Shown here piece after piece: positions 3,430 through 21,802 of a DNA stretch of 64,000 bases (position 1 is the first letter of the stretch; each line of letters opens with the position of its first letter). The notes beneath the pieces were generated by a model, which was given only the letters and a program-made list of their open reading frames with translations, searched no databases and was not told where the DNA came from. The translations under genes were made by a program, and so were the position numbers. The stretch lies in the NCBI RefSeq assembly GCF_053078305.1, contig NZ_CP166879.1; one strand, 5' to 3'.

Positions 3430-4248
3430 TTAAGCAGCCATCTGATGATATTTTTCCCTGAAGGCTGCCGGGGAGATATTCCCCAGACGAGAGTGACGAC
3501 GCTGACGATTGTAGAAAATCTCAATGTATTCCCGTATTACTGAGATGGCCTCATCCCGGCTCTTAAAACGATAGTGGCTCAGGCTCTCATTTTTCAGCGT
3601 TCCCCAGAAGCTTTCCATCGGAGCGTAGTCGTAACAGTTACCTTTACGCGACATTGATGTTTTCAGACCAAACTGCTCCTGTATGACCCGGTAATCGTAT
3701 GCGCAGTACTGTGAACCTCGATCGGAGTGGTGGATTAGCCCGGCAGGTGGGCGCTGGCTCCTGAGCGCCATAAACAGGGCTTTACCTGTCAGCTCTTTTG
3801 TCATGCGCTCTCCCATGGCGTAGCCGACAATTTCGCACGTATAAACATCTTTGATGCCAGCGAGGTACAACCATCCCTCCTGTGTGGCAACATACGTCAG
3901 GTCCGCCACCCAGACCTGATTTGGTGCTGTAGGAGCGAACGTCTGGTTCAGCAGATTTGGCGCAACTGGCAGATTGTGGTTCGAGTTCGTAGTCGCTCTG
4001 AACTTGCGTTTATGCTTACAGCGTAGCCTTAGCTCCTTACGAAGACGTGCCAGTCGGTCACGACCAACGATGATGCCATTCTCTGCCAGCTCCGTCTGGA
4101 GCCGCCGGGTTCCATATGTTTCGCGAGTGCGGATATGTGCCACCTTAATCTCCAGTTTTAGCCGCTCATCACTTTGTTTTCTGTCTGAGGGTTCATGCTG
4201 TACCCGGTTGTAATAACCGCTCCTGGATACACCAAATACCTGACACAT
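3430..4248 (-). CDS. IS600 OrfB (IS3-family transposase, DDE integrase core), 272 aa
   Basis: rve/DDE signature region (VWVADLTY...HSDRGSQY...); position inside the IS600 inverted repeats. Confidence 0.8.
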   Translation of the reverse strand: MCQVFGVSRSGYYNRVQHEPSDRKQSDERLKLEIKVAHIRTRETYGTRRLQTELAENGIIVGRDRLARLRKELRLRCKHKRKFRATTNSNHNLPVAPNLLNQTFAPTAPNQVWVADLTYVATQEGWLYLAGIKDVYTCEIVGYAMGERMTKELTGKALFMALRSQRPPAGLIHHSDRGSQYCAYDYRVIQEQFGLKTSMSRKGNCYDYAPMESFWGTLKNESLSHYRFKSRDEAISVIREYIEIFYNRQRRHSRLGNISPAAFREKYHQMAA

Positions 4249-4283
4249 CGCTTCAATGGGAAATTGTTGTCGCCATTGTTCGA

Positions 4284-4586
4284 TTAACGCGTATTTTTCA
4301 GCGACTCCTGTGCAAAATACGCTGTTGCTTTTTTTAATATATCTCGCTCAAGGCGAGCTTCATTTAACGCCTTACGCAGTTGCAGAATTTCAGATTCCAG
4401 TTCAGCCACCGTGCGGGAACCAGGAGTACCGAGCCCTTTTCTGGCGGCGGTAACCCATTGTCCTAAAGTGCCTTCAGGAAGAGATAATCGGGAAGCGCCT
4501 TCACTGATCGAAAGTTGATTTTCAAGAACCGTTCTGACAGCTTCGGCTTTGAACTCTTTAGAGTAACGTTGGGTTTTTCTGCTCAT
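4284..4586 (-). CDS. IS600 OrfA (IS3-family transposase HTH subunit), 100 aa
   Basis: Sequence MSRKTQRYSKEFKAEAVR... matches recalled IS600 OrfA; followed by OrfB. Confidence 0.8.
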   Translation of the reverse strand: MSRKTQRYSKEFKAEAVRTVLENQLSISEGASRLSLPEGTLGQWVTAARKGLGTPGSRTVAELESEILQLRKALNEARLERDILKKATAYFAQESLKNTR

Positions 4587-5071: not shown

Positions 5072-6628
5072 ATGCACGATTACCTGCTTTTTTTACTGGG
5101 ACTTACCCCCCTTCTGGCGATGATCATTTTGATTCTGAAAGTCAAAATGCCCATACACTATTCTGTGCTTAGCACTCTCCTGCTCACGCTAATCCTTGGA
5201 GGGGTTTTCTGGCAGACGCCAGTTATGGATATGGGATCTGCTGTGGTATACGGCGCAATCAAAGGTTTGTGGCCGATTGTGATTGTCATCCTTGCTGCCA
5301 TTTACAGCTATAACCTGATGAATGCGACAAAAAGCATGGATATTCTGAGAAATGTTCTAGCCAGCGTGAGCGATGATAAACGTATCCAGGTTCTTCTTAT
5401 CTCATGGTGTTTTGGCGGATTTCTTGAGGCGGCCGCCGGATACGGTACAGCGGTAGCAATCCCCATAGGTATACTCATTGCACTGGGCTTTAACCCACTA
5501 AAAGCAGCGATTGCATCACTGGTTGCTAATACAGTCCCTACAGCGTTTGGGGCAGTCGGTATACCTGTCTCCGTGCTTGCTGAACAAGTTAATTTACCTG
5601 TAACCACACTCAGCGGGACGATTATTCTTCAGCTGGCACTGTTCAACATTCTGCTCCCCTTCGTTATCGTCACGATTATCGGTGGAGGTATGAAAGCTAT
5701 ACGAGGCGTAGGGTTAATTACCCTGATGTGCGGTATTAGCACATTGATACCTCAGTATCTGGTGGCTGTTAATCTTGGCGCAGAGCTCCCGGCTTTCGCA
5801 GGAAGTCTTGTCAGTCTGATCGTTATAGTCTTTATGGCAAAAAACCGTAAAGAAAAAACAGAACCTGAATTTCTTATTGAGAGTTCAGCAGATAGCGCCA
5901 GCGCACTTTCATACTCTCGTGGGGCGTTGTTACGTGCGTGCTCAATCTACATTCTGATCTTTCTGTTCATTCTGCTTTGCTCTCCACTGTTCCCGACGAT
6001 AAAAAGTGCAGTGTCTCAGATTGCCTCGTCACTCACCTTCTCTCTGAGTAACGGCAGCAATCTGTCGATGAAAATTGAATGGATCGCAACCCCCGGTGTT
6101 CTGATTATCATTGCCAGTGTTATTGGCGGCTTGATACAGAAAGCATCCCTGTCATGCCTGTTAAACGTATTTGTCAGCACGGTAAAACAACTTAAAAACT
6201 CCATTATTGCCATTTCTGCGATTGTTGCCATGGCAACGGTAATGGATGTCTGTGGGTTGATTGGCACTCTGGCACAGAGCCTTGTGGATCTGACTGGTGG
6301 GGCCTACCTCTTCATTGCTCCGGTTATCGGCGCTCTTGGTACATTTGTTACTGGTAGTGACACAAACTCCAACATTCTGTTTGGTAAATTGCAGACTACT
6401 GCGGCTGAAAAATTGCATGTGGACCCGCTCTGGCTGGCTGCCGCAAATACATCTGGCGCAACAGGCGGCAAAATGATTTCTCCTCAGAGTATTGCTATCG
6501 CTGTTTCAGCCACCCGTATGGATGGTCAGGGCAGCGTAATCATGTCAGGAACACTGAAGTACTGCTTTGCTTATATTGTTATTCTTGGACTGAAAGTAGG
6601 CCTTGTCTACCACCTGTTCATGGCCTGA
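5072..6628 (+). CDS. L-lactate permease family (LctP/LldP-like) transporter, 518 aa
   Basis: Polytopic membrane protein; conserved LctP blocks (GLWPI, CFGGFLEAAAGYG, TGSDTNSN, GGKMISPQSIAIA) recalled from LldP/GlcA. Confidence 0.75.
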   Translation: MHDYLLFLLGLTPLLAMIILILKVKMPIHYSVLSTLLLTLILGGVFWQTPVMDMGSAVVYGAIKGLWPIVIVILAAIYSYNLMNATKSMDILRNVLASVSDDKRIQVLLISWCFGGFLEAAAGYGTAVAIPIGILIALGFNPLKAAIASLVANTVPTAFGAVGIPVSVLAEQVNLPVTTLSGTIILQLALFNILLPFVIVTIIGGGMKAIRGVGLITLMCGISTLIPQYLVAVNLGAELPAFAGSLVSLIVIVFMAKNRKEKTEPEFLIESSADSASALSYSRGALLRACSIYILIFLFILLCSPLFPTIKSAVSQIASSLTFSLSNGSNLSMKIEWIATPGVLIIIASVIGGLIQKASLSCLLNVFVSTVKQLKNSIIAISAIVAMATVMDVCGLIGTLAQSLVDLTGGAYLFIAPVIGALGTFVTGSDTNSNILFGKLQTTAAEKLHVDPLWLAAANTSGATGGKMISPQSIAIAVSATRMDGQGSVIMSGTLKYCFAYIVILGLKVGLVYHLFMA

Positions 6629-6677
6629 GAAAAAACAACAAAAGGACGTGGAATATTAATCAACAGGAGAAATTTCT

Positions 6678-7397
6678 GTGAATGTTAACTTTTTCGTCAC
6701 CTGCATTGGTGATGCGTTTAAATCCCGGATGGCACAAAAGAGTGTGCTGTTACTGGAGCAATTGGGTTGCAATGTCCATTTCCCCGAAAAGCAGGGATGT
6801 TGTGGTCAGCCAGCGATAAATGGCGGTTATGTTCGTGATGCCATCCCGGGCATGAAAAATCTCATATCTTCGCTGGAAGAGAATGACTGGCCGGTAGTAT
6901 CTCCTGCCGGGTCATGCACTTACACGATAAAAAATTACGCTCGCTATCTCAGTGAAGAACCTGAGTGGGCGGCACGAGCTGAAAAAGTGGCTGAACGCCT
7001 GCATGATTTGACATCATTTATAGTAAATCATCTTGGCATCACAGATGTTGGGGCAAAACTCAATGGTCGCGCTGTGTACCATCCCTCCTGCAGCCTTTCC
7101 CGTAAGCTGGGTGTAACCAGAGAGCCGCTTTTGCTACTTGAGAATGTACAGGGGCTTGAGCTACTGCCGTTTCACGCTCAGGAAACGTGCTGCGGGTTTG
7201 GCGGCACATTCTCTGTAAAAATGGCGGAGATCTCTGGTGAAATGGTGAAAGAGAAAGTCGGGCATATTATGGATGTTAAACCTGATTTTCTTATCGGGGC
7301 TGACGCCAGTTGCCTGCTAAACATCGGCGGTCGGCTTAACCGTGAAGGGCATCCTGTAAAAGTGATGCATATTGCTGAAGTCCTGATGCACAGATGA
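6678..7397 (+). CDS. LutA/YkgE-like Fe-S oxidoreductase (cysteine-rich CCG-domain protein), 239 aa, GTG start
   Basis: Two CCG motifs (QGCCGQP, ETCCGFGG); size and order as in lutABC/ykgEFG operons. Confidence 0.75.
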   Translation: MNVNFFVTCIGDAFKSRMAQKSVLLLEQLGCNVHFPEKQGCCGQPAINGGYVRDAIPGMKNLISSLEENDWPVVSPAGSCTYTIKNYARYLSEEPEWAARAEKVAERLHDLTSFIVNHLGITDVGAKLNGRAVYHPSCSLSRKLGVTREPLLLLENVQGLELLPFHAQETCCGFGGTFSVKMAEISGEMVKEKVGHIMDVKPDFLIGADASCLLNIGGRLNREGHPVKVMHIAEVLMHR

Positions 7398-7407
7398 GGT
7401 AAACAGA

Positions 7408-8823
7408 ATGTCTTTGAAAACAAGTGATATCAGGTTTAAAGAGCGTATCCGTATTCAGATTCAGGACCCGATCATGCGAAAAGCTGTGGCTAACGCACAG
7501 GAGCGCATAGGGACTAATCGACAGAAAATGGTTGATGAACTGGGACACTGGGAGGAATGGCGTTCACGAGCTGAACAGATTCGTCGGCATGTTCTGGAAA
7601 ATCTTGATGCTTATTTGTATCAATTGTCCGAAAAGGTTACTGCGAATGGCGGGCATGTATATTTTGCCCGTACCAGAGAGGATGCAACCAGTTACATACT
7701 GAAGGTGGCGAAAGAAAAAAACGCCAGGAAGGTTGTTAAATCCAAATCAATGGTGACTGAGGAAATTGGCATGAATGCCGTTCTTCAGAAAGCCGGGATA
7801 CCCGTGATTGAAACGGACCTTGGGGAATATATTCTTCAGCTAGCACATGAGCCACCATCGCATGTGGTTGTGCCGGCAATACATAAAGATCGCCATCAAA
7901 TCCGCAGAGTTTTACATGAACATCTGGGGTATGACGGGCCTGAAACTCCAGAAGCAATGACATTGTTCATCCGTGAGAAAATCAGACAAGATTTTCTGAG
8001 TGCTGAAGTTGGCGTAACGGGGTGTAACTTTGCCGTTGCAGAAACAGGGTCAGTCTGCCTTGTTACAAACGAAGGCAACGCACGGATGTGCACCACATTA
8101 CCTAAAACACATATTGCTGTTATGGGTATGGAGCGTATTGCTCCGACATTCCAGGAGGTGGATGTTCTGATTACCATGCTTGCAAGGAGTGCTGTCGGGG
8201 CGAGACTGACAGGTTATAACACCTGGCTTACAGGCCCCAGAGAAGAAGGACATGTTGATGGTCCGGAAGAGTTCCATCTCGTTATTGTTGACAATGGGCG
8301 TTCAGAGATTCTCGGCTCAGAATTCAGCGATGTATTGCGATGTATCCGCTGCGGTGCCTGCATTAATACCTGCCCGGCTTATCGTCAGATTGGTGGGCAT
8401 GGTTATGGTTCAATCTACCCGGGGCCAATCGGCGCGGTTATTTCCCCATTGCTTGGTGGATATGAAGACTTTAAGGATTTACCCTATGCCTGCTCATTGT
8501 GCACTGCCTGCAATGGGGTATGTCCTGTAAAAATACCTCTGGCAACGCTAATACAAAAACATCGCCAGGTTATGGCAGAGTCTGAAATCACACCATTAAC
8601 GGAACGCCGTATAACCAGAGCATTCAATTACATAAACAGCCATCCGGCGTTGTGGAAGGTAGGTATGGTTGCTGGGGCCAAAACAGCCCGTCTGTTCATC
8701 AGGAAAGGAAAAACGCCGATTAGTGTTGGGGCGATAAAAGAATGGACTGAAGCCAGAGACCTGCCATCACCTGATGGAGAAAGCTTCCGTAGTTGGTTCA
8801 AGCGACATAAGAAGGAGGGGTAA
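7408..8823 (+). CDS. LutB/YkgF-like 4Fe-4S lactate-utilisation protein, 471 aa
   Basis: Two ferredoxin-type clusters (CIRCGACINTCP, CSLCTACNGVCP); follows the lutA-like gene with a 10-bp gap. Confidence 0.75.
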   Translation: MSLKTSDIRFKERIRIQIQDPIMRKAVANAQERIGTNRQKMVDELGHWEEWRSRAEQIRRHVLENLDAYLYQLSEKVTANGGHVYFARTREDATSYILKVAKEKNARKVVKSKSMVTEEIGMNAVLQKAGIPVIETDLGEYILQLAHEPPSHVVVPAIHKDRHQIRRVLHEHLGYDGPETPEAMTLFIREKIRQDFLSAEVGVTGCNFAVAETGSVCLVTNEGNARMCTTLPKTHIAVMGMERIAPTFQEVDVLITMLARSAVGARLTGYNTWLTGPREEGHVDGPEEFHLVIVDNGRSEILGSEFSDVLRCIRCGACINTCPAYRQIGGHGYGSIYPGPIGAVISPLLGGYEDFKDLPYACSLCTACNGVCPVKIPLATLIQKHRQVMAESEITPLTERRITRAFNYINSHPALWKVGMVAGAKTARLFIRKGKTPISVGAIKEWTEARDLPSPDGESFRSWFKRHKKEG

Positions 8824-8826
8824 TTT

Positions 8827-9525
8827 ATGGAAAACAGAGAGGAATTTCTCGTTGCGATCGCCAGAAAGCTTGGCAGACCAGTAAGACATATTCCCGAAGC
8901 AATGCCGGAGCCTGTAAATACGCTGGCTACGACACGTTTAACAGAGTTGACATCAGACCAACGCTGTGAGGCGTTTATTAAATTTGCCTCGGAAGTGATG
9001 CTTGCCGAGTGTGTTCTGGTGTCGCCTGAGAACGCACCATCAACAGCCTTAGACATCTGTTGGAAGTTCGGTTCCGGGCCAGTCATTATCAGCAACGATC
9101 AACGACTGGTCGATACAGGGATTACGCCATTGCTACAAAAAGAAATGGACGCTGCTCTGTGGGATCCGGAGAAGGGCGATGAAAATATCCATCTTGCTGA
9201 AAAGGCAAAAACTGGTGTCGTTTTCGCTGAGTATGGGCTGACAGAATCAGGAGGCATTGTCTTATTCTCCGCACCAGAACGTGGGCGCTCAGTAAGCCTT
9301 TTGCCTGAAGCATCATTATTTGTTTTACGTAAAAGCACCATTCTCCCCAGAGTGGCGCAGCTTGCGCAAAAACTTCATGATATGGCTCAGGAAGGACAAC
9401 GGATGCCGTCCTGTATAAATCTGATTGGAGGCCCAAGTTCTACTGCAGATATAGAACTGATCAAAGTTGTTGGCGTACATGGTCCTGTACATGCAACCTA
9501 TTTGATCATTGATGATTGCGATTAA
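8827..9525 (+). CDS. LutC/YkgG-like lactate-utilisation protein, 232 aa
   Basis: Size and position completing the three-gene lutABC-like set; start 4 bp after the lutB-like stop. Confidence 0.65.
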   Translation: MENREEFLVAIARKLGRPVRHIPEAMPEPVNTLATTRLTELTSDQRCEAFIKFASEVMLAECVLVSPENAPSTALDICWKFGSGPVIISNDQRLVDTGITPLLQKEMDAALWDPEKGDENIHLAEKAKTGVVFAEYGLTESGGIVLFSAPERGRSVSLLPEASLFVLRKSTILPRVAQLAQKLHDMAQEGQRMPSCINLIGGPSSTADIELIKVVGVHGPVHATYLIIDDCD

Positions 9526-9618
9526 CGATTGCTAATAAAAAAATGGCCTTAAGGTGATATTTCGTCTTGTGAAAAGGCAACAATAGACTAAAGGTTAGGC
9601 ATAATTGTGTTTCTTTAT

Positions 9619-9649
9619 GCCTCCGCAGCAATTTGTGGAGGCTTTTTTG
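9619..9649 (+). terminator. Rho-independent terminator after the lactate module
   Basis: GC-rich hairpin gcctcc-(loop)-ggaggc followed by TTTTTTG. Confidence 0.6.
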
Positions 9650-9730
9650 CTTACTCCAAACAGTTTGGCTTCTTGAAAAAGTCATATCCCAAACCTATTG
9701 ACGCTTATAAAAAAGTAAAGAATGGTGAGT

Positions 9731-9792
9731 AAGCGTAAACTGACCACCGTATGTAGCCATGATGCCAGTATTGGTAACGTAGGTGCACCCCT
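9731..9792. repeat. Solo IS66-family terminal-repeat remnant (copy 1)
   Basis: GTAAGCGTAAACTGACCACCGTATGTAGCCATGATGCCAGTATTGGTAACGTAGGTGCACCC is near-identical to the orfA-side end of the IS66-family element at 21737..21798. Confidence 0.6.
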
Positions 9793-9861
9793 ATCTATTT
9801 TTGTAGAACCGGAGGAAACAGACCAGATAGTTTAAATGAGCTGGTTATACGTAACATAATT

Positions 9862-9893
9862 GTAAGCGTAAACTGACCGCCGTATGTAGCCAT
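9862..9893. repeat. Solo IS66-family terminal-repeat remnant (copy 2, shorter)
   Basis: GTAAGCGTAAACTGACCGCCGTATGTAGCCAT repeated 131 bp downstream of copy 1, same orientation. Confidence 0.55.
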
Positions 9894-9981
9894 CAGACGA
9901 AAATTGGTAACTTAGACGCCCATCTGATATAGACGGACATCTAAGTATGGAATTACATGAACCGCCCCGGAAATCCTGGAG

Positions 9982-10212
9982 ACATCTGGCCACCCTGATT
10001 CCTTCCCGTAACAACTGACGCCAGACTTTACGCACATCGTATACGCACGGTATCTTTTTCTTCAGCCAGTCATCACGCTGCGCACGGGCATTGCGTTTAT
10101 CAGGATGATGTCGCTGTTGCTGACAGTGGTAATACGTTGACGGGGCAATATGCAGTTCACTGCATACCGGTCCGATCCCGTACTGCTCACGCGACTTATC
10201 CAGCAGTGGCAT
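9982..10212 (-). pseudogene. IS629 orfB, 5' 77 codons only (deletion derivative)
   Basis: MPLLDK...GIRVARC matches the IS629 OrfB N-terminus; the reading frame then runs into the inverted-repeat sequence. Confidence 0.7.
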
Positions 10213-10538
10213 TATTTTTTCCAGGGGCGGTCGAACTCCGCCTTCGCAAAATAAGTGGAAGCCTGGCGAAGGATATCGTTACTGCGGCTCAGTTCACGAT
10301 TTTCACGTTCCAGCTCTTTCAGACGCTGACGTTCAGTGGTGGTGAAACCACCATCACCGCCCCCAATATCCTGCTCATGCTGGAGTACCCAGACGTGCAG
10401 AGTCTCCGGTGTACAGCCAATCTTAGGGGCAATAGAACAAATTGCTGTCCATTGTGAGTCATATTCGCCCTGACTTTCCAGAACCATACGAACTGCCCGT
10501 TGACGGACTTCGGGGGAAAAACGTGTATTTTTAGTCAT
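10212..10538 (-). CDS. IS629 OrfA (IS3-family transposase HTH subunit), 108 aa
   Basis: MTKNTRFSPEVRQRAVRMVLESQGEYDSQW... matches recalled IS629/IS1203 OrfA. Confidence 0.8.
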   Translation of the reverse strand: MTKNTRFSPEVRQRAVRMVLESQGEYDSQWTAICSIAPKIGCTPETLHVWVLQHEQDIGGGDGGFTTTERQRLKELERENRELSRSNDILRQASTYFAKAEFDRPWKK

Positions 10539-10752
10539 CCTGTTTACCTCTTTCTCAGGGAGTTTAGTCTCCAGGATTTCCGGGGCGGTTTAACGTTTAT
10601 AACAACTCCGACCATTCAAAATGGCCGGCGGGGTATAAATCCCTATCAATTTAACATTATCTCATTTGACATGAATAACGCCGTTTATCTATTTGTTGCC
10701 CTTTAGCTAGTTCATAGCAACCTAGAAAAATTTATTCGTTGCAATATAAATG

Positions 10753-12300
10753 CTACTTGCGTAGCGATAAAATTGCCCGTGCGGTTTCAGCACGGTTATA
10801 GATCTGCATTTTTTTTATTGCAGCATCCACATCTTCACCGCTTTTCTTATTCAGTTTAATCAGAAACTCAACAGGTAATAGCGAAGCTAAATTTTCAAAT
10901 TTTGATTCAGACCAAGTAATGGTTGCAACAGCCCCTTCAGTTCTCTTAATCATTAGTTTTTTAAGTAATTCTAAACGCTCTGGCTCAACAGTTATATAAC
11001 CAATCGGCAGGGTTAATGCACTATCAGAATTAGGTTGACCGTGGTATTGCACCAAAGCAATCACATCAGGAATTAAGAGGATCTCCAAACGATCAAATTT
11101 AGCCTCTGAAGTAAGGCCAATACCGGTAGGAAAACGACCTAAGTGCCGCTTACGCTCTTGACGTTTTTCACCTTCATCTGCACTTGAGTGTAAAAGCGAA
11201 ATGCGAGCAATCTTATCATCGGCATAATTGCCAAGTATATCGCCTAGAGCGCGAGTAAAACGCGAAAGTTGACTACCATTAGCTCCCCACAGTGGTACTT
11301 TACTGCTATACCACAGCGCTTTTGGAGCTGTTTTACCTATATAATCACGTAATGCATTATGCAACATACTAATGAACAGCTTAGAATTGTGCGGCAAATA
11401 AACAGCCCCTAACATGCCGGTAGTCAATGAAGTACCGTAGCCAGTTTTACGTTGTTCACGAGCCTCTATCCAGCCGGAATAGTTGAACTTATAACCATTA
11501 GCAAATTGTAACAACACTTTATCATTTGCTAGTTTACAGAAATCTTCACAGTCGATACCGAATTCATCTAGTTTATGTTCTCCCAAAAAATCTGCGATAT
11601 GAGCTTCCAGCTCGTTTGAAAGCGGCAGCCGGGTGTTACCTAAATATTCATAGGAACGAGTAAATTTCTGCGGCTCAATGCTCCCAGCAGAAACACCGTA
11701 GCTAACCTCTATCTCTATTGGGAGCTGCACCATCTCATGCGAACTACAGCCCATTATCTTATATAATTTAGTCCGTTGACGCTCATACTCGCTGTTGCGG
11801 CTGAGCAAAAGATGGTGCCGAAACTGGGAACTAAAAGCCTCTGTTACCGCAGCAGCATCTCCCCCGATCTGATGCCGCGGCAATAGCTCTGGCAGTCCAG
11901 AAGTAAAACGACGATTTGGTTGCGGTTTACATATCGAAAGAGTTAGTAGATCGAATGCAACTTCCTCCGTACATTCTTGATATTTAACTAAACTTGGCTT
12001 CCCACCATTATTAGCTGCATGCTTACGTAGGAATGAGCTAGCCTCAATATGCCCATCAGGATTAATGTTGATCAGTCTGTTAGCCAGCAACCCATCAAGC
12101 AATACCTCTCGCTCACGATCAGTTAGACCAAAGTAATTCTGTAACTCGCTGGGATAGAGTTGATCAAAAATCAGCAGCAAGCGACATGCAAACTGTTCAA
12201 TTCCAGGCATCAGTTTTTCAGTGGTCAAAGCGCAGTTGATCTTGTAACTACGCGCAGGTAGTAAAACGGTAATCAGATTACCCAGACGTGGTTCTGACAT
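10753..12300 (-). CDS. Hypothetical 515-aa protein, partner of the NERD-kinase-helicase gene; no motif recognised
   Basis: Long ORF in low-GC DNA; its ATG overlaps the upstream stop (TAATG) indicating translational coupling. No TM segments, P-loop, HKD, HEPN or other signature seen by eye. Confidence 0.7.
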   Translation of the reverse strand: MSEPRLGNLITVLLPARSYKINCALTTEKLMPGIEQFACRLLLIFDQLYPSELQNYFGLTDREREVLLDGLLANRLININPDGHIEASSFLRKHAANNGGKPSLVKYQECTEEVAFDLLTLSICKPQPNRRFTSGLPELLPRHQIGGDAAAVTEAFSSQFRHHLLLSRNSEYERQRTKLYKIMGCSSHEMVQLPIEIEVSYGVSAGSIEPQKFTRSYEYLGNTRLPLSNELEAHIADFLGEHKLDEFGIDCEDFCKLANDKVLLQFANGYKFNYSGWIEAREQRKTGYGTSLTTGMLGAVYLPHNSKLFISMLHNALRDYIGKTAPKALWYSSKVPLWGANGSQLSRFTRALGDILGNYADDKIARISLLHSSADEGEKRQERKRHLGRFPTGIGLTSEAKFDRLEILLIPDVIALVQYHGQPNSDSALTLPIGYITVEPERLELLKKLMIKRTEGAVATITWSESKFENLASLLPVEFLIKLNKKSGEDVDAAIKKMQIYNRAETARAILSLRK

Positions 12301-15300
12301 TAGTTGTTATCTCCAAGCAGACTTTGACCACACAGGATTTGGTAGTTGGGTTCATCTACTGCAACCTGTTTACTAATAAATTCATGAACGTTTCCAAGTG
12401 CTGAATCATTATTGGTCTTTGACCACATACGCCTTGCTCCCAGAATCAATAACCTTTCTTGAGCTCGCGAAATAGCAACGTTTATTCGCGGCGCGTCGCG
12501 CAGGAAACCTTGTAGTTTGTTGGGATTATCGCGAACCAGACTGAGGATAATTATCTTGTTTTCCTGGCCCTGATATGAATCAACGGTATCGATCTTGATC
12601 AAACCACGTAACGATGCAGCCCATTCAGCCCGACTGATAGCATTGTCAATTTCCTCTTTTTGCTGACGATACATTGTGATTATACCAATAGGATATGGCT
12701 GTTCTGTGGTAATAGTTTGCTCAAGCTGTGCAATGCAGCCATCACTCGACAATGACTGCAAAGCCTCTAGCAGTAGCCGGACTTCTCGTTGATTATAGTA
12801 ACGACCATTACCCTTATGTTCTTCTGCACCTGCTTCATTAGGGCTCGAACTATCGATCCAAGTAACAGTTTTGTTCCAAGGGATTGGTAACTTGGAATAC
12901 CAATCTGGCGAGACTTTCCTCGATGAATGCAGTTTACCGATATCTTGAGCGTAAAAGCACTCCGATACTAACTCGCCAATTGGTTCTACCATTCGATATT
13001 GAGTATCGAGTGTTACGCCGCCTGTTGCTTTAAAAGCACGTTCAAAATCAGACTCATAAAAGATCCCTTTCCCGAGTTCTAATTTCTTAGAGGCTAACTT
13101 AAGATGCTGTTGATGATAGAATGGTGGCAATTGTTTATGATCCCCTACCAACAGCACCCGCTTGCCTGATTGCAGCGCTACCATCAATTCAGCAGCTTGT
13201 GCTCGGCCAGCCTCATCAACTATTACCCAATCAAAGCTGGACTCAGCTAGTTCTAGTCGACGATTCCCAACACCAACAAGAGTTCCACAAACCAATCGCT
13301 TACTTTTGAACATAAATCGATCAAATCCAGCCTCGCCGCCGCGTAATACATCCATCCACTCTTGGCTCATTTCCAATAGCTGCATAAAACGTTCAAGGTT
13401 CTCTGGATTGTTATAATTGTATTGTATGGCAACTTGCTCAGCCAACTGTCTTATCAAGGTTTCATCATAGACAAGAGTTTTCAGCAAGCTGTCATCGAAT
13501 ATTGAGTTAATAATTTCTTGTGTTCGCAGTTTAAGCTGATTGCTTTGTTCTAATAATTCAGCCAGTCGCTCTTGATGACTAATACTACTACTCTTTATTT
13601 GTTCTACTTTATCCAGCTCACGGCTATATTGGCCATATGTCACCATCAAGGGATTCAGCGTACGATGTAACTGACATAACTGTTGGACTAATAATGGGGC
13701 CATCCCTAGGCGCTTTCCTAGGGAGCTAACTCGCAGATCATATTCACGGTGAAATTTATGCTGAATCTGTCGCTGAAGAGCTTTAGTTGCAACACTTAGC
13801 ATACCCTCATCAATCATAAGTTCATTACCAATACGTACTGTATCCAGTTCCATTCCTTTCGTATGGCAGAGCTCTCGAGCCTTGATGGCTACATTATCAA
13901 CAGAGGCATGGGATTGCCCGACCAAAAGAATGTTATTCACACCGCAATGTTGATACAGATAGTGAATAAATTTTGAAATAAATGTTGTTTTACCTGTTCC
14001 AGGTGGTCCCTGCAGAACTCCAACTGGTCCAAACTCGACCAACTGTTGAAATGCCATTAGCTGCTGTTCATTAAAACGTTGTCCAGGCTGATCATAAAGT
14101 GCGCGTAATGTCTCCGCGGATGGCCGCGGTTGCATTTGCTGCATGCAGGGTTTCTGGTGGTAATCAAAATACTGTGGCAGATGCTGGATCTCTGCTTTGT
14201 TTTCAATTACCCGTTGAAGGGCTCTTTGACGCAACTCTCTTGATGATTTGTCACGGATCGATTCCAATTGTAGCTGGCTGCCGCTACTAATTCGCTTACG
14301 AGCAGCATCAAAATCAAAGCGAATAGCCAATAGACTCGGCGTAGTCTCACTTAGCTGCAATTCCCCTAATTGCACTGATTCACGCTTATCTTTAATATAA
14401 ACAATGATCTTATCATCAAGTTCAAAGCTGAGGTCAGCACCGGATTCCGTAGTATATGGGTAGAGTAAGCAACCACTCGGTGATTCCTGAAAGTCAGTAG
14501 AGTCGATGTTGACTATATCTCGTAGGTCTACTTCTGTATCAGATAATGCCTGCCATAACTCAATTGGGCTTGACTCACTACTATCGAAGTCATCTTCATC
14601 CATCTCTTGATTAGGATTAGCTCGCTCAATGATGGCATCAATTACTGGCTCGAGGTTAAACAGTAGTTCAATAAAAGTATTACGCTGATTAAGTGAGCCA
14701 CGTTGTAATGAAAGTTGAGTATTAATTTTAGCCTGGGAATATTTACCAGCCTTTATACTTTCTTCGATCGATAATCCTTTTTCATACACTATTCTATTAA
14801 TAGTGCGATTATCAGGATCTAAGTCTATCAATAGCCGCTCTCCTAGGCCAGTGATGTAACAACGCAATTCATGCGCAAAGCGTGGGTTAGATGACCAGTT
14901 ACATTGAAAATAATAGATCCCATCATTTTGTTCTAGAAGCTTCACTTCTTGCGGCCAATCATCTGTGCCCCAGCAAACAGGAATTACCTTATCCTGTGAC
15001 TCAGACGCCACAACTTGATTAATCTCAGCTTGTTCCGGTGCTCGAATTGACTGCAGCAAAGGATCGAGCGCGATAGGTATACCGTCAACGGTTTGTTTTG
15101 CGCGTTCTAGCTCAGCCTGCACCAGTACTGGCATATCTTCACTAAATAGCTCCTCCACCATACGATATACTGCAAAGCAATCTCGCCCAAAAGCATCAGT
15201 ACTTTCGGGATTCTCTGGCTGGTAGCGATTATCTGCAGTTAATTCATCACTGAATTCAAGCAATCCAATCAGAGTAATTACTGTCTGCTCCCCGACTTGT

Positions 15301-17258
15301 ACCAGCAGTTTCTCTGGGCAAAGATCTCCATGAGGTAACTGCTTTTCATGAAAAGCATGAATGGTGTTGATCAACTTTTCCGCAATTGTAAAACGTTGGG
15401 ATTGTACTAACACGTTCTCAGCAATAAACTGTGACCACGGTAGGCCATCCACATACTCGCTCACTACATACAAGCCGCCTTGTCCTAATAGTCCATAGGA
15501 CTGCACCTTAGGAGTTGGCAGATTTATATGCGTAAGCTTATCGATCCGTTGCTTAAAAGCGTGGATACGGCGGTTAACACCAGGTTGTTGAGGGGTCAAA
15601 ATAACACCATCCCACAATTTTACCTGCAGAGCTTTCCCACCTTGTTCACAGTGATAACTGATGCTGCCAGTCGTAGCAATAGCAGCAAGAGCAGAGTAAA
15701 CCATAGACAACTGTTCAGGAAGTGGAGGAAACTCAATTAACACACCAACGCTGTTCATCCCTTCGCGAAAGAATTTGTTTTGCTTTAATTCTTGATAAAT
15801 CTGGTTAGCTTCATCAAATTCTTGGCTATGTTCCTTAGTAGCTGCATTAAACTCATTGAGCATTATGTCCGCACGTGGAAAGCGTTTACTTGGCTCAAGG
15901 TTAAGAGCTTGCTCAAACCAGCTATTTAGAATACCGCTAAAAGGATCAGTTAATGGAGCTCTCCATTCAGGCATCTGTCCAGGAGTCAGTAATGATTCAC
16001 CTGCAAAACAAATACGATAAGCAATTACAGCCAACATGAATACATCTAGGCGATAGGGCTCAACTGCTTCTTCAAAAGCATCTTCGGGCAAAATATATGG
16101 AGCACTTTGCAATGTCGGACGCAATGACTCTAGGCTATTATGTCCCTCCAGTGAGGCTGCGCCAAAGCCAGTAACGACAATGCTCTTCTGATCCCCTGCG
16201 TACCATAGATTGTGCGGGTCAATATCACAATGACTGATACCCAAGCTATGTAATTCCGAGAATGGAGCTAATAATGCACGAACGCGATCAATACGCTCAG
16301 ATTTACTCCATCCGTCAGCTTCGCTATCTAGAATCTCATCTAATCGGCTAAAACTACGGCGTAACTCATACAGCTCACGGGCATCATCAGTTATATCCTC
16401 CTCGGATAGTTCCCTTACAGCACGCAACATATAATCCTGCATAGTTGCGCTGCCATGACGAACTAGGCGACCGACTCGAGTCTCACGCAGAGCTATCTCA
16501 GCCCACAATGTTTGCATTGCGTTTGCTACACCCAAGGCATCAAAGTTCCACTGCCGTAGCAGACCTCTGTGTTGACTATTGTCTTTGTGGGTAGCCCTGA
16601 ATTCGTTGTAGACCATGTGAGGGTGACTAAAGAATGGCTTATCGTTCGCAAGATAACCGCTTTCTTTTAGTGGCAAAGGCCTGACTTTTGGTCCTTCAAA
16701 GAAGGACTTAATTATAGGTAATGCCTCATCAGAATTTGGTCGAGGCTTTCCCCCTTCAAAAAGATGAAAAAAGTTAGTGTGTTGCACCAGCTTTTCGTAA
16801 TTTTTTGGGTTACCTATAGTCAAGAATTCATCACGGGTATGAACATAGCGCCTCTCACTTAATGGCAAGTTTTCAGGACCAGCTGTGCCACACAGCACTA
16901 CATGAGCCTCAACATGCAAAAAGTAACCCAGCTTACGAGATAACTCTTCCTGCAACAAATCTTTTAGTCGCAGTGCATGCTCACGCTTGATCTGATAGGG
17001 ACTTTTGCCTCGTGACTTACCATTTTGCAGCCACTTCCCCCCTTCAAATGTGATGTTACCATTCCACTCTTTAAGCTCGACTAATAGCAGACGGTCAGCA
17101 GTAATAATTAGCATATCGATTTCCATCGACCCTTGGCTATCAGTAACAACTAAGCCAGCATAGCCAAACCAACTATCTGGTAACTGCTTAACCATCATAT
17201 CAACTGTTTTGGTTTCGCTGCGGTGCAGGCCAGCACCACCTACTATCTGATACTTCAC
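12300..17258 (-). CDS. 1652-aa multidomain protein: NERD (PD-(D/E)xK-like) domain, two protein-kinase-like domains, Upf1/DNA2-like SF1 helicase
   Basis: GTG start with GGAG about 9 nt upstream; NERD-like EIDMLIIT...LLVELKEW (aa 45-64); kinase-like catalytic loops HCDIDPHNLW (aa 343-352, then TGFGAA) and HGDLCPEKLLV (aa 643-653); helicase Walker A GPPGTGKTT (aa 1085-1093), Walker B VIVDEAGRA (aa 1345-1353), VGDHKQLPP, DSYQGQE, NVAISRAQERL. Confidence 0.75.
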   Translation of the reverse strand: MKYQIVGGAGLHRSETKTVDMMVKQLPDSWFGYAGLVVTDSQGSMEIDMLIITADRLLLVELKEWNGNITFEGGKWLQNGKSRGKSPYQIKREHALRLKDLLQEELSRKLGYFLHVEAHVVLCGTAGPENLPLSERRYVHTRDEFLTIGNPKNYEKLVQHTNFFHLFEGGKPRPNSDEALPIIKSFFEGPKVRPLPLKESGYLANDKPFFSHPHMVYNEFRATHKDNSQHRGLLRQWNFDALGVANAMQTLWAEIALRETRVGRLVRHGSATMQDYMLRAVRELSEEDITDDARELYELRRSFSRLDEILDSEADGWSKSERIDRVRALLAPFSELHSLGISHCDIDPHNLWYAGDQKSIVVTGFGAASLEGHNSLESLRPTLQSAPYILPEDAFEEAVEPYRLDVFMLAVIAYRICFAGESLLTPGQMPEWRAPLTDPFSGILNSWFEQALNLEPSKRFPRADIMLNEFNAATKEHSQEFDEANQIYQELKQNKFFREGMNSVGVLIEFPPLPEQLSMVYSALAAIATTGSISYHCEQGGKALQVKLWDGVILTPQQPGVNRRIHAFKQRIDKLTHINLPTPKVQSYGLLGQGGLYVVSEYVDGLPWSQFIAENVLVQSQRFTIAEKLINTIHAFHEKQLPHGDLCPEKLLVQVGEQTVITLIGLLEFSDELTADNRYQPENPESTDAFGRDCFAVYRMVEELFSEDMPVLVQAELERAKQTVDGIPIALDPLLQSIRAPEQAEINQVVASESQDKVIPVCWGTDDWPQEVKLLEQNDGIYYFQCNWSSNPRFAHELRCYITGLGERLLIDLDPDNRTINRIVYEKGLSIEESIKAGKYSQAKINTQLSLQRGSLNQRNTFIELLFNLEPVIDAIIERANPNQEMDEDDFDSSESSPIELWQALSDTEVDLRDIVNIDSTDFQESPSGCLLYPYTTESGADLSFELDDKIIVYIKDKRESVQLGELQLSETTPSLLAIRFDFDAARKRISSGSQLQLESIRDKSSRELRQRALQRVIENKAEIQHLPQYFDYHQKPCMQQMQPRPSAETLRALYDQPGQRFNEQQLMAFQQLVEFGPVGVLQGPPGTGKTTFISKFIHYLYQHCGVNNILLVGQSHASVDNVAIKARELCHTKGMELDTVRIGNELMIDEGMLSVATKALQRQIQHKFHREYDLRVSSLGKRLGMAPLLVQQLCQLHRTLNPLMVTYGQYSRELDKVEQIKSSSISHQERLAELLEQSNQLKLRTQEIINSIFDDSLLKTLVYDETLIRQLAEQVAIQYNYNNPENLERFMQLLEMSQEWMDVLRGGEAGFDRFMFKSKRLVCGTLVGVGNRRLELAESSFDWVIVDEAGRAQAAELMVALQSGKRVLLVGDHKQLPPFYHQQHLKLASKKLELGKGIFYESDFERAFKATGGVTLDTQYRMVEPIGELVSECFYAQDIGKLHSSRKVSPDWYSKLPIPWNKTVTWIDSSSPNEAGAEEHKGNGRYYNQREVRLLLEALQSLSSDGCIAQLEQTITTEQPYPIGIITMYRQQKEEIDNAISRAEWAASLRGLIKIDTVDSYQGQENKIIILSLVRDNPNKLQGFLRDAPRINVAISRAQERLLILGARRMWSKTNNDSALGNVHEFISKQVAVDEPNYQILCGQSLLGDNN

Positions 17259-17468
17259 GTTTTCTCCTGCACCACTAAATTTTTGTTGGTGGTAGTCCAG
17301 TAAAAATGGATGTAGTTATCTAAGACAGCGCATAGATTGTGCCTGCCTAACCCTAAAAAGTGTAATTATGAAAAGTAACGCTAGAAATTCTATACCGTTC
17401 GCAAAGAGAACACTTTTCAAAGATATATCATCATCTTGAACATGTCACTATAATGGTGAATCCATAAG

Positions 17469-17630
17469 ATGCGAACACCACATCTTGTGCCACTCAGCAA
17501 ACAGGCTGTAGCCATACTGATAAAACTTCAGACATGGGCAGTTGAAAATGGTCTGGTCTTTACGGGAGCACATGACCCGCGTAAACCAATCAGCGAAAAC
17601 ACCGTAAATAAGGCCCTTAGGTGCCCTTGA
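17469..17630 (+). pseudogene. Tyrosine-recombinase (phage integrase) C-terminal fragment, about 53 codons
   Basis: Translates to MRTPHLVPLSKQAVAILIKLQTWAVENGLVFTGAHDPRKPISENTVNKALRCP*, resembling the integrase segment around the catalytic region; no N-terminal part present. Confidence 0.35.
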
Positions 17631-17725
17631 ACCACTATATCCAGACAGCCGTTGAGCTTAAGTTAACGTTACCGAGTGACGTTGATATTCCCTCGGTGAG
17701 AGATAACCAAGGCACCATGAGGATG

Positions 17726-18353
17726 CTATTCGTTATAGTGTTCGAACGCCTCCGCAAGGTTTTTTACTGCCGTTAACACGTCCGGTTTAGGTATGATACT
17801 GATGTAATCGCTCTTCATCGTTTTCACGAACCGTTCTCTCATTCCATTACTCTGAGGGCTACTGACTGCCGTCGTGCAGAGCTCCAGATTCAACTCTCTG
17901 GCGAACTGCCGTGTTTCATGAGTTGTATAAGCCGAACCGTTATCGGTCAGCCACTGGATGGGCCATCCCGGTCTATCGCCAAAGCGTTTTTCTATCGCTC
18001 CTGACATGACATCCTGCACCGTTGCTTTGCCATAACCTCCCGTGCTTGCGGCCCAGTCTATGGATTCAAGATCGCAACAGTCCAGTGCGAACGTGACACG
18101 CAGTTTTTCGTCATCATCACAACCGAACTCAAAGCCATCGGCACACCAGCGCGGGTCGCTTTCCTTCACCGATATTCGGGCCTTTATGTTCCCTCTGCGG
18201 TCGTGAAGGTTTGTCATGTAATAACAACAGGTTATTCTCGCTCATTATTCGATAAACGCGATTTGCATTCACGAACTGCAGTCCTTCGTTAAGACTGCCG
18301 TCTGAGAATAGCCCAGACACGACGATAGCCATCGAATCGCTGAACAGCGTCAT
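17726..18353 (-). pseudogene. IS2-like (IS3 family) transposase OrfB remnant, truncated and frameshifted
   Basis: 163-aa ORF contains [10 protein letters not shown]...WLTDNGS...AEAFEHYNE resembling IS2 InsD; the upstream 74-aa ORF in another frame carries the adjacent NANRVYRIM segment. Confidence 0.6.
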
Positions 18354-18459
18354 TCGGCAGGCGATAAAGAAGGTGTCGTTACGGGGAAGTCATCTTCACA
18401 GAGATTTTCAGTCAGTTAGCATTACCGACATTCATTCACCAACTTACCGGAGATAATCA

Positions 18460-18789
18460 ATGTCAAAACCCCGATGGACCATTGAACAGAAAAGGCAGCA
18501 CGTTGCTGCCTGGCGCGCCAGTGGTCTTACACGTCAGCAATACTGTGAACTCAACGATATTCCCTTCACATCACTTCGCGAATGGCCGCAGGATGTCGCA
18601 AAAGCTGAACGCCGGGCAAATGAACCGACCGTTCTTCCCGTTCATATTGCGCCACCACTGCATGCTGATGTACCACAGCCCGTCACGAATGAGCCAGTCA
18701 CGCTCTTCCTTCCCGGCGGAGTACGGATGTGCTGTCAGCCGTCACAACTTACCGATGTCTTCAGGGCGCTCAAATATGCTCAGTCCTGA
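18460..18789 (+). CDS. IS66-family element B, OrfA-like (HTH), 109 aa
   Basis: Small HTH-like ORF immediately upstream of an IS66 TnpB-like ORF in the typical overlapping arrangement. Confidence 0.5.
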   Translation: MSKPRWTIEQKRQHVAAWRASGLTRQQYCELNDIPFTSLREWPQDVAKAERRANEPTVLPVHIAPPLHADVPQPVTNEPVTLFLPGGVRMCCQPSQLTDVFRALKYAQS

Positions 18790-19168: not shown

Positions 19169-19295
19169 AAAATAATGAATATCCGTATCCGGAGTGGTAT
19201 ACTCCCCTGTATGGATATCTCCGCTCTCAACACCACGAATGACATCGAAAAACTGCGTGCTATGGGTAAGCGTCAACGGAGCACCGTATTGACGC

Positions 19296-20909
19296 TTATT
19301 TATTGGTGAGTACTACGTTCCATGGCAGGAGTTCATCAACTCGGTTGGAAGGCCATTCTGGCAGTACGCTCAGGATATGGCGCAGATACGCTTCCGGATC
19401 GATACCGTTCAGACGGCAGGTGCCGATCAGCCCGTACAACAGTGCTCCACGCTCGCCGCCGTGATCGCTGCCAAAGAACATAAAGTTTTTCTTTCCGAGA
19501 CAGACTGCACGAAGCGCTCTTTCCGCAGCATTATTATCCGCCTCCGCCAGACCGTCATCACTGTAATAACAGAGGGCATCCCACTGATTCAGTACATAGC
19601 TGAACGCTTCGCCCAGTCTGGATTTTTTCGACAGCGTACCATTCTTCTCCACCATCCATTCATGCAGTGACGTCAGTAACACTTTGCTTCGCTGCTGCCT
19701 GACGGCAAGACGCTCTGACTCCGGTAATCCCCGTATTTCATCCTCGATGGCGTACAGTTCACTGATTCGCTTCAGGGCTTCTTCTGCCGTCGCACTTTTG
19801 CTGCTGATGTATACATCGTGGATTTTTCGCCGGGCATGGGCCCAGCACGCAACTTCTGTCAGTGCACCACCTTCACGTTCTGCACTGAACAGCCGATCGT
19901 AACCGCTGAACGCATCCGCCTGCAGGATACCCCGGAAGGGACGAAGGTGTTGTACCGGATGTTTTCCCTGCCTGTCTGGTGAGTAGGCGAACCAGACCGC
20001 CGGTGGCTCTGATGAGCCCGCATTCCGGTCATCCCGGACATACGTCCAGATGCGTCCTGTTTTTGCCTTTTTTCTGCCCGCTGCCAGCACTTTTACTGGT
20101 GTGTCGTCAGTGTGAACCTTGCGGGTGTTCATCACGTAACGGTACAGGGTATCATTCAGCAGAGTCATTAACTGACAACATGCGTCAACCCAGTTGGAGA
20201 GTAATGCCCGGCTCAGTTCGATGCCCTGGCGGGCAAAGATTTCACTCTGACGATACAGTGGCAGGTGTTCGCAGTATTTTCCCGTTAACACGCGGGCAAG
20301 TAATCCGGAGCCCGCGATGCCGCGCTCTATCGGGCGGGACGGCGCTGGCGCTTCAACTATACAGTCACATTTTGTACAGGCTTTTTTTACCCGAACAGTG
20401 CGGATCACTTTCAGGGCGCTACTCACCAGTTCCAGCTGCTCAGCACTGACTTCCCCCAGATAATCCAGCTCACTGCCACACTCCGGGCAACAACTTTCTT
20501 CAGGCTCCAGACGGTGTATTTCACGGGGAAGATGTGCCGGTAACGGACGACGATGACGTGACTGTCGCAACTGGCGGGGAACCTGCGGGTCATCCTCACG
20601 CCCACTGTAACGATCGCTTTCCTGTTCGCGTTGTTTCAGTTGGGCCTCAGCCTGTTCAACCTCACGCTGCAGTTTTTCAGAACGGGTACCGAACAACATC
20701 CGGCGCAGTTTTTCTATCTGGGCCCTCAGATGTTCTATTTCCCGCTCCTCCTCTTCGATCTTTTCCTCGGCACGTGCCAGTGCAGAGCGCAGGAAGGCCT
20801 CCGTCTCTTCAACCAGACTCAGTTGCTGATCTTTCTGACGGAGGGCTTCAGCCTGCTCAGAGAGCAGCCTTTCCAGCTCAGTGATACGAATGAGGTATTT
20901 CCGACTCAT
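19296..20909 (-). CDS. IS66-family transposase OrfC, 537 aa (element A)
   Basis: Coiled-coil N-terminus, CxxC zinc-finger region, DDE-type core typical of IS66 TnpC. Confidence 0.8.
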   Translation of the reverse strand: MSRKYLIRITELERLLSEQAEALRQKDQQLSLVEETEAFLRSALARAEEKIEEEEREIEHLRAQIEKLRRMLFGTRSEKLQREVEQAEAQLKQREQESDRYSGREDDPQVPRQLRQSRHRRPLPAHLPREIHRLEPEESCCPECGSELDYLGEVSAEQLELVSSALKVIRTVRVKKACTKCDCIVEAPAPSRPIERGIAGSGLLARVLTGKYCEHLPLYRQSEIFARQGIELSRALLSNWVDACCQLMTLLNDTLYRYVMNTRKVHTDDTPVKVLAAGRKKAKTGRIWTYVRDDRNAGSSEPPAVWFAYSPDRQGKHPVQHLRPFRGILQADAFSGYDRLFSAEREGGALTEVACWAHARRKIHDVYISSKSATAEEALKRISELYAIEDEIRGLPESERLAVRQQRSKVLLTSLHEWMVEKNGTLSKKSRLGEAFSYVLNQWDALCYYSDDGLAEADNNAAERALRAVCLGKKNFMFFGSDHGGERGALLYGLIGTCRLNGIDPEAYLRHILSVLPEWPSNRVDELLPWNVVLTNK

Positions 20910-20939
20910 GACCGTTTTTATAATCCGGCCATGACATTT

Positions 20940-21290
20940 TTACAACATTGTCAGTGCATTAAGGCGGGATGTTTTGGGCTGACGCCAGTCCAGTTTATCG
21001 AGGAGCATTGCCAGCTGCGAGCGGGTAATGGATACCTTACCGTCACGCACCGCAGGCCAGATAAACTGGCCTTCCTCCAGACGTTTGGTGAACAGGCACA
21101 GACCATCAGCATCAGCCCACAGAATTTTAATCGTGTCACCCCGTCGGCCGCGAAAGATAAACAGGTGACCGGAGAAGGGGTTCTCATCCAGCACATGTTG
21201 TACCTGTTCTCCCAGACCGTTGAAGGATTTACGCATATCAGTAACGCCGGCAACCAGCCAGATTCGAGTGCCTGATGGGAGCGAGATCAT
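20940..21290 (-). CDS. IS66 OrfB (TnpB), 116 aa (element A)
   Basis: MISLPSGTRIWLVAGVTDMRKSFNGL... characteristic IS66 OrfB. Confidence 0.8.
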   Translation of the reverse strand: MISLPSGTRIWLVAGVTDMRKSFNGLGEQVQHVLDENPFSGHLFIFRGRRGDTIKILWADADGLCLFTKRLEEGQFIWPAVRDGKVSITRSQLAMLLDKLDWRQPKTSRLNALTML

Positions 21291-21712
21291 CGTCCCCTCC
21301 CGGTCAGTTCACGGATCAACACCGTGAGCAGCTCTGGTGAAGGATTTTCCAGCGTCATGTTACCGTGGCGGAACTCAACTTTACAGGAACTGGCACTGAC
21401 TGTGCTTTGTGAAGGAGTGGATAAAAGCGGAGTAAGAGCCGCCACAGGCTCTTTCTGCTCATCAGGCGTTATCTCAACAGGTAATAATTCAACGCCAGCG
21501 CCAGAAGAGGTTGTTACCGGAAGACGCCGCGATATACGCCCTTCGTTCTGCCAGAGCCTGAGCCATTTGAACAGGAGGTTATCATTGATATCGTGTTCCC
21601 GGGCAATACGGGCAACAGAGGCTCCTGGTTGTGAAGCCAGTTTAACCATTTGAAGTTTAAACTCATTTGAAAATGATCTGCGGGGTTCTGAGGATAATAT
21701 TTTCTGTTCCAT
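21287..21712 (-). CDS. IS66 OrfA, 141 aa (element A)
   Basis: HTH-containing OrfA (NEFKLQMVKL...); overlaps orfB by 4 bp. Confidence 0.75.
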   Translation of the reverse strand: MEQKILSSEPRRSFSNEFKLQMVKLASQPGASVARIAREHDINDNLLFKWLRLWQNEGRISRRLPVTTSSGAGVELLPVEITPDEQKEPVAALTPLLSTPSQSTVSASSCKVEFRHGNMTLENPSPELLTVLIRELTGRGR

Positions 21713-21802
21713 AACAGGTGTCCACTAGTTGAAAAGGTGGGCACCTACGTTACCAATACTGGCTTAATGGCTACATACGGCGGTCAGTTTACGCTTACTG
21801 CT

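Follow-up and report, generated by a model that had tools for sequence, protein, structure and literature searches.

The 64,000-nucleotide stretch analyzed here (the window; contig NZ_CP166879.1 of assembly GCF_053078305.1) contains a cluster of insertion sequence (IS) fragments at the edge of a low-GC cassette, which raises the question of what these fragments derive from and how they came to lie there. The initial annotation placed them at 9731-10598 and described an IS629 deletion derivative preceded by two tandem IS66-type end repeats. All elements of this observation were confirmed in the sequence, far above chance, and the coordinates were right to within a few bases, except that the IS ends at 10592 and the earlier end was set 6 bp too far. 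Quite probably, this inert stack of IS fragments represents the joint between two accessory modules of a genomic island of E. coli, with an lldP-lutABC-like lactate utilization cluster on its left and a predicted Mokosh type I cassette on its right. The features concerned are as follows; IS names throughout are those given by PGAP.

9729..9792, plus strand: copy 1, tnpA-side end (GTAAGCGTAAACTGACC...) of an IS682-like element, of which the first 64 bp are kept, 92% identical to IS682
9793..9848, minus strand: inverted ISCro1-like left end of about 53 bp, with 92% identity to the ISCro1 of VTB96933v (its positions 1-52)
9849..9861, no strand: spacer of 13 bp that moves with copy 1 and the ISCro1-like end as a conserved module
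9862..9957, plus strand: copy 2, left end of an ISEc23-like element (its first 96 bp), with 98% identity over 103 bp to a plasmid copy named ISEc23 by PGAP
9958..10592, minus strand: IS629-group (IS3 family) remnant of 635 bp, a non-autonomous, probable hybrid copy, from alignment with the IS1203 of pO157, the SC516 copy, and the CE0007a remnant
9958..9982, minus strand: orfB-side terminal inverted repeat, 25 bp, beginning with TG
9982..10212, minus strand: orfB stump, first 77 codons, from its translation compared with IS1203 OrfB
10010..10034, no strand: putative crossover interval, 25 bp identical in both isoforms, placed by diagnostic sites
10141..10257, minus strand: intact programmed -1 frameshift region with ALIL pseudoknot and slippery A-run (Rfam RF01497)
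10212..10538, minus strand: intact orfA, 108 aa, helix-turn-helix (PF01527 HTH_Tnp_1, E 1e-9)
10567..10592, minus strand: orfA-side terminal inverted repeat, reading TAAACC... instead of TGAACC...
10753..17258, minus strand: predicted Mokosh type I anti-phage cassette, low GC (0.42-0.45), from PADLOC and Pfam
10753-12300, minus strand: mkoB, 515 aa (PADLOC MkoB, E 1.1e-61, profile positions 11-439 of 454)
12300-17258, minus strand: mkoA, 1652 aa (PADLOC MkoA, E=0, 1305 bits, profile positions 2-1598 of 1607)
19266..21798, minus strand: intact IS682 (tnpA, tnpB, tnpC), 99.3% identical to the IS682 of CE0007a (NCBIfam IS66 TnpA, TnpB, and transposase)

For the right-hand module, the low-GC cassette is a predicted Mokosh type I defense system, with MkoA encoded beside MkoB. 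The two genes are adjacent and overlapping and are transcribed toward the IS remnant, and the Pfam domains of MkoA are NERD, a kinase-like domain, and an SF1 helicase. The RefSeq labels of MkoA and MkoB are only "AAA domain-containing protein" and "hypothetical protein", respectively. Beyond the cassette, the intact IS682 is a simple insertion into a different IS66-family element (tnpA and tnpB at 18460-19168), for which SC516 has the empty site. Farther to the right, an ORF of 3037 aa (24166-33279, minus strand) lies in a high-GC stretch (0.54-0.59). This stretch is missing from GPEC1176, which is otherwise identical and whose similarity to the window stops near 22.4 kb.

For the left-hand module, the lldP-lutABC-like lactate utilization cluster occupies 5072-9525, downstream of iha (693-2783) and an IS600 (3430-4586). 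Identification of this flank with the ykgEFG locus of K-12 was rejected, as the identity of the lut-like genes to that locus is only about 70%; the cluster is an accessory paralogue, and K-12 therefore offers no empty site. A strong terminator-like hairpin (9619-9652; 10-bp stem, T-run) is found downstream of the lutC-like gene and before the IS66 stumps, and it is probably the native terminator of the operon.

Members of the IS3 family and its IS629 group have terminal inverted repeats of about 25 bp with ends of the form 5'-TG...CA-3'. In the window compared with itself, the termini of the remnant form a perfect 24-bp inverted repeat (9960-9983 versus 10590-10567). The 5' edge at 9958 reads TGAACC..., whereas at the other edge (10592) the 3' CA of the orfA-side terminus is mutated to TA; SC516 has the same mutation together with the same right flank. 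The statement in the initial annotation that this IS629 derivative keeps both termini and orfA is supported. The encoded OrfA shares 95 of 108 residues with that of IS1203, and the two genes differ by 13 non-synonymous and 10 synonymous codons. The orfB gene opens in the -1 frame at 10212 and tracks IS629 OrfB for exactly 77 codons (...GIRVARC) before it enters the inverted repeat, as had also been claimed; these 77 codons reach codon 84 in the standard IS1203 numbering, because this lineage lacks seven codons. The frameshift region between the two genes gave a full-length match to RF01497 (107.3 bits, compared with a gathering score of 50). No Pfam match to the rve (DDE) domain was found in the remnant, the catalytic domain being wholly deleted, and RefSeq annotates the unit as a frameshifted and incomplete transposase pseudogene. 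Without a DDE domain the remnant cannot transpose by itself, and mobilization is unlikely given the mutation of one terminal CA to TA. Judged from these sequence features, the 635-bp unit is a remnant rather than a functional member of the IS3 family.

The extent of the deletion was determined in a four-sequence alignment that comprised the IS1203 of pO157 (1310 bp), a partial copy labeled "IS629 family" by PGAP, the SC516 copy (1287 bp), and the CE0007a remnant. Compared with IS1203, 675 bp are missing, namely 654 bp (alignment columns 26-679 of IS1203) and an additional lineage-specific gap of 21 bp at 10034/10035. Compared with the SC516 copy, which is the closest full-length relative, 652 bp are missing. 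Both values agree with the loss of roughly 670 bp proposed initially. The deletion joint (CCTGGAGA/CATCTGG, at 9982/9983, with a one-base ambiguity of A) has microhomology of 1 bp at most, and its exact nature is slightly ambiguous because base 26 (C) of the left terminus would suit an orfA-side repeat just as well. A transposase-mediated or excision-enhancer-type deletion was considered and rejected on reasoning, since the joint borders the inverted repeat on its inner side, away from the chemically active outer end, and has no more than 1 bp of microhomology.

By the ISfinder convention, copies with more than about 90% nucleotide identity are isoforms of one element. The retained part of the remnant (610 bp) is 99.5% identical to the SC516 copy, 92.6% to the IS1203 of pO157, and 93.3% to the IS629-family copy. 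With about 93% identity to the IS1203 and IS629 copies, it is therefore an isoform-level relative of these elements. The diagnostic sites that distinguish the isoforms fall into two blocks. All three sites beside the joint (9994, 10000, and 10009) have the state of IS1203 and CE0007a, whereas to the right of the putative crossover all 41 diagnostic sites, like the 21-bp gap, have the state of SC516. The IS1203-type segment spans the joint and about 27 bp beyond it, and the remaining approximately 560 bp belong to the isoform linked to Mokosh. Because of sites 9994, 10000, and 10009, the best matches outside this locus remain at 98.6-99.6% identity, and no full-length copy with the site combination of the window was found among 5,426 complete E. 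coli genomes. Together, the two-state pattern of sites and the lack of a full-length match suggest that the remnant is a hybrid. No target-site duplication flanks it (ACA on the left, ACG on the right), as expected for a recombinant copy, whereas an intact IS1203 copy is flanked by a 3-bp duplication (GAC/GAC). Recombination between two IS629 isoforms within 10010-10034 would best explain these patterns, rather than a deletion in place. As such, the initial reading of a deleted copy with both ends holds, but it overlooked the mosaic of two isoforms. Two points would weigh against a hybrid history: the IS1203-type segment is defined by no more than three diagnostic sites, and the 25-bp crossover interval is near the lower limit for RecA-dependent exchange.

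Comparison with related strains revealed arrangements that resemble each half of the window. Of the 5,426 complete E. coli genomes, nine combine the ISEc23/IS629 junction with the deletion joint, and all have them at this locus; seven of these have the hybrid of the window, and two (the cattle strains CE0007a and CE0026a) have a second type, hereafter the CE type. The two cattle strains share with the window the lactate cluster, the IS66 stumps, the ISEc23 stump, and the deletion joint, while the right half of their remnant is of the IS1203 type and their right flank is unlike that of the window. The remainder of ISEc23 is no longer present on the right of the CE-type remnant, and at least one further, unseen rearrangement is therefore needed. 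For the other half, the IS at the Mokosh junction of SC516 is full length (1287 bp), and 160 bp separate it from the mkoB stop codon. It is a degenerate isoform with two 1-bp deletions (frameshifts), the 21-bp gap in orfB, and the terminal CA-to-TA mutation (locus L002 6608-6610; window 10590-10592). The right flank of the window and a further 8.9 kb are 99.96% identical to SC516, which is colinear with the window over 10355-19265 and 21799-22386 at more than 99.8% identity. About 100 records carry the IS-Mokosh junction at 99% identity or higher, and the Mokosh-linked isoform resembles a fixed, immobile fossil that is carried with the cassette in these approximately 100 genomes.

These strains also bear on the simpler possibility of decay in place, in which one IS629 copy inserted next to the cassette and lost about 670 bp without any exchange. 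Such a history would account for the colinear presence of both termini and orfA, as well as for the size of the remnant, which one deletion joint is enough to explain. It leaves unexplained why the sequence is a mosaic, with one type at 3/3 sites and the other at 41/41 sites and the indel, and why a target duplication is absent. Moreover, CE0007a and CE0026a have the same joint with another right half and another right flank, and about 100 genomes pair the right half and flank of the window with a full-length IS. Decay in place is thus considered unlikely. For the hybrid reading, no reciprocal product of recombination was found; the right junction of CE0007a, used as a query, matches only the two CE strains, and the order of events therefore stays an inference. 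An intact precursor, with a full-length IS629 at position 96 of ISEc23, was also absent from the 5,426 genomes, in which the sole near match is an independent insertion 4 bp away and in the opposite orientation. Many other genomes have an IS1203 near an IS66 tnpA; in the two inspected, these are adjacent elements and do not form this junction.

The same distribution argues against mobility of the remnant. A perfect 24-bp terminal inverted repeat and the abundance of full-length IS629/IS1203 copies in E. coli would be compatible with a MITE-like, non-autonomous element that is mobilized in trans by full-length IS629 transposase. Yet only 9 of 5,426 genomes have the joint, all of them at one locus, a target duplication of 3-4 bp is missing, the terminal CA on the orfA side is mutated to TA, and either flank, taken alone, corresponds to an IS junction that already exists in other strains. 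These findings make a MITE-like element extremely unlikely.

OrfA proteins of the IS3 family (e.g., those of IS911 and IS3) are known regulators of transposition. It may be asked whether selection has kept orfA and the frameshift site of the remnant as a trans-acting damper of IS629-group transposition, through OrfA or a truncated OrfAB, and the intact state of orfA, its start, and the ALIL pseudoknot next to a destroyed orfB would fit this role. The 13 residue differences in OrfA and the ratio of non-synonymous to synonymous changes (13 versus 10) are nearer to relaxed than to purifying selection, and the structure is rare (nine genomes with the joint, seven with the hybrid). Furthermore, one of the seven window-type genomes (JNEC-KY172) has an ISEc23-like insertion in the slippery site, which splits the last three codons and the stop codon of orfA from the remainder of the gene. 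A regulatory role retained by selection is therefore very unlikely, and no sign of mobility or function of the remnant was found.

To the left of the remnant, self-comparison of the window confirmed two IS66-type ends in the same orientation, which start at 9729 and 9862. Copy 1 had been described as nearly identical to the end of the IS66 element at 21737..21798, and this is borne out by 92.3% identity over 65 bp (E 2e-21, inverse orientation) to the tnpA-side end of the IS682 in the window (21799-21735). Copy 1 is also 92% identical to the IS682 of CE0007a. Only the end survives here, and in OkiPb01677 343 bp of the same IS682-like element are kept at the same left junction. Copy 2 includes the tnpA start codon (9947-9949), and the IS629 insertion cuts this gene in codon 4. 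Both ends are thus real, but a third fragment had been missed between them, namely the inverted ISCro1-like end at 9793-9848, in which the terminal G is changed to A. Together with copy 1, this fragment makes up two different IS66-family left ends that are fused interior-to-interior. The termini begin with GTAAGCG or GTAACCG, as in the IS66 family, and the stumps are 92% (IS682), 98% (ISEc23), and 92% (ISCro1) identical to the tnpA-side ends of these named members of the IS66 family.

Unlike intact members of the family, these stumps (53-96 bp each) have no tnpA-tnpB-tnpC genes and no second end, and the rest of ISEc23 was not found elsewhere in the window. Four insertions of intact IS66 relatives are flanked by the 8-bp duplications characteristic of this family: the IS682 of the window (perfect duplication TGCTATGG, 19258-21806), a later IS682 insertion in CE0007a and CE0026a (GCAATATG), an ISCro1 insertion at the position of 9691-9698 in VTB96933v (AAACCTAT), and the ISEc23-like insertion of JNEC-KY172 (TTTTTTCC). 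No such duplication flanks copy 1 or copy 2, the partner ends of which are gone. Movement of the 120-bp head-to-head IS66 stump as a MITE was also considered and rejected, given the lack of a flanking 8-bp duplication; among the matches listed, which are a sample, the whole stump never occurs apart from the right flank conserved with it.

The 133-bp module at 9729-9861 is old and is present in more than 200 genomes with different left neighbors, and the whole of 9600-9861 follows the lactate cluster in 121 genomes. E. coli 042 and similar strains match exactly 9729-9861, with 54 bp of an IS629 end and pic on the left. In VTB96933v, the module is followed by a type I restriction system, and homology to the window stops at 9861 as it does in 042. 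Direct examination showed that VTB96933v has copy 1 without copy 2, and the counts indicate that the same applies to most of the 121 genomes with the whole of 9600-9861.

These results are relevant to the relationship between the two copies, which the initial annotation took as tandem copies of one repeat. A local tandem duplication, or the two ends of one miniature IS66 element, might be suspected from the shared orientation, the distance of 133 bp, and the identity of 85% over 54 bp. However, copy 1 is closer to IS682 (92%) and copy 2 to ISEc23 (98%), and copy 2 shares no more than 84-85% identity with IS682 or with copy 1. Copy 2 also runs for 96 bp, into tnpA, and neither copy has flanking 8-bp duplications. 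Since VTB96933v (and, by the counts, most of the 121 genomes) has copy 1 without copy 2, the copies are not tandem duplicates, and an origin of both from one repeat or one miniature element is extremely unlikely. They come from independent elements of different ages, and with the ISCro1-like end the IS66 ends derive from three different members of the family.

Nesting of IS629-group and IS66-family elements is recurrent, with at least five independent events in the window and related strains. These include the IS629 in the left end of ISEc23 in the window; an IS1203 in the left end of an ISEc23-like element in the O157:H7 strain Z892 (locus L015 4069-5378), which entered that element 4 bp from the point used in the window, with its orientation reversed, and is located elsewhere in the chromosome; the IS682 in the IS629 remnant of CE0007a (locus L003 6645-9194); the ISEc23-like element in the slippery site of the remnant of JNEC-KY172 (locus L011 5524-8056); and the IS66 end that abuts position 54 of an IS629 end in E. 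coli 042 (locus L017 4947-5002). Two more IS66-family insertions lie within about 170 bp. It is doubtful that IS629-group and IS66-family elements target each other, and the nesting could reflect only tolerance of insertions in dead DNA. If true, a preference for IS ends or their DNA structure would be a small new point on the target choice of both families.

For the observed anatomy, hybrid pattern, shared joint, and genome distribution, a history of five steps may be proposed. First, an IS682-like and an ISCro1-like element would have been reduced to the 133-bp head-to-head stump at 9729-9861, which is now a module boundary in many strains. Second, an ISEc23-like element would have inserted at 9861/9862. 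Third, an IS1203-type IS629 copy would have inserted 96 bp into this element, in codon 4 of tnpA. Fourth, this copy would have lost 654 internal bp by illegitimate recombination with at most 1 bp of microhomology, leaving the 25-bp inverted repeat, 84 orfB codons (IS1203 numbering), the frameshift site, and orfA. Fifth, homologous recombination or gene conversion within 10010-10034 with the degenerate Mokosh-linked isoform would have joined the two modules and formed the hybrid 635-bp remnant. We infer this order and the mechanism of recombination, and derivation of the window type from the CE type and the reverse both fit. The initial suggestion that IS-mediated rearrangement has recurred at the border of the low-GC cassette is supported.

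Recombination between IS copies at dispersed sites classically leaves hybrid copies that lack target duplications. The locus also resembles the IS graveyards of pathogenicity islands, where nested and truncated IS lie at module boundaries; compared with these, the only unusual points are that the putative crossover tract is short (25 bp) and that one partner appears to have been internally deleted already. The remnant has the same type of termini (TGAACCGCCCCGG...CCTGGAGA) as the IS629/IS1203/IS3411 group and the same order of orfA, -1 frameshift with ALIL pseudoknot, and orfB start. It differs from IS1203 in its size (635 bp versus 1310 bp), the absence of the DDE domain, its probable hybrid nature, and the lack of a target duplication. 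IS629 has isoforms (IS1203 and IS3411) and subtypes that are 4-5% apart (Rump et al. 2011, PMC3271280), and the right-hand isoform, at about 7% from IS1203, is beyond this range. In that study, IS629 had target duplications of 3-4 bp and no sequence-specific targets, and the copies described include truncated ones and a chromosomal one with an internal deletion (PMC3271280). The latter, from E. coli O55:H7 CB9615, was compared by description only; like the remnant, it is internally deleted and lies in a mobile chromosomal region. The CB9615 deletion was termed unique (PMC3271280), and none of the nine genomes with the present joint is an O55:H7 strain.

Taken together, the feature is an ordinary genomic scar, which matters little alone. 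What the analysis adds is the apparent hybrid joint that links a Mokosh cassette to another island module, the derivation of the IS66 ends from three members of the family, and the apparent immobility of the remnant and its limitation to a few strains. The remnant and the 133-bp IS66 stump could help to trace lineages among the few strains in which they are shared. The hybrid remnant would be a physical record of the move of the Mokosh cassette, and it would illustrate cleanly how exchange between scattered IS copies, even defective ones, may shift a complete anti-phage system into a new island context.
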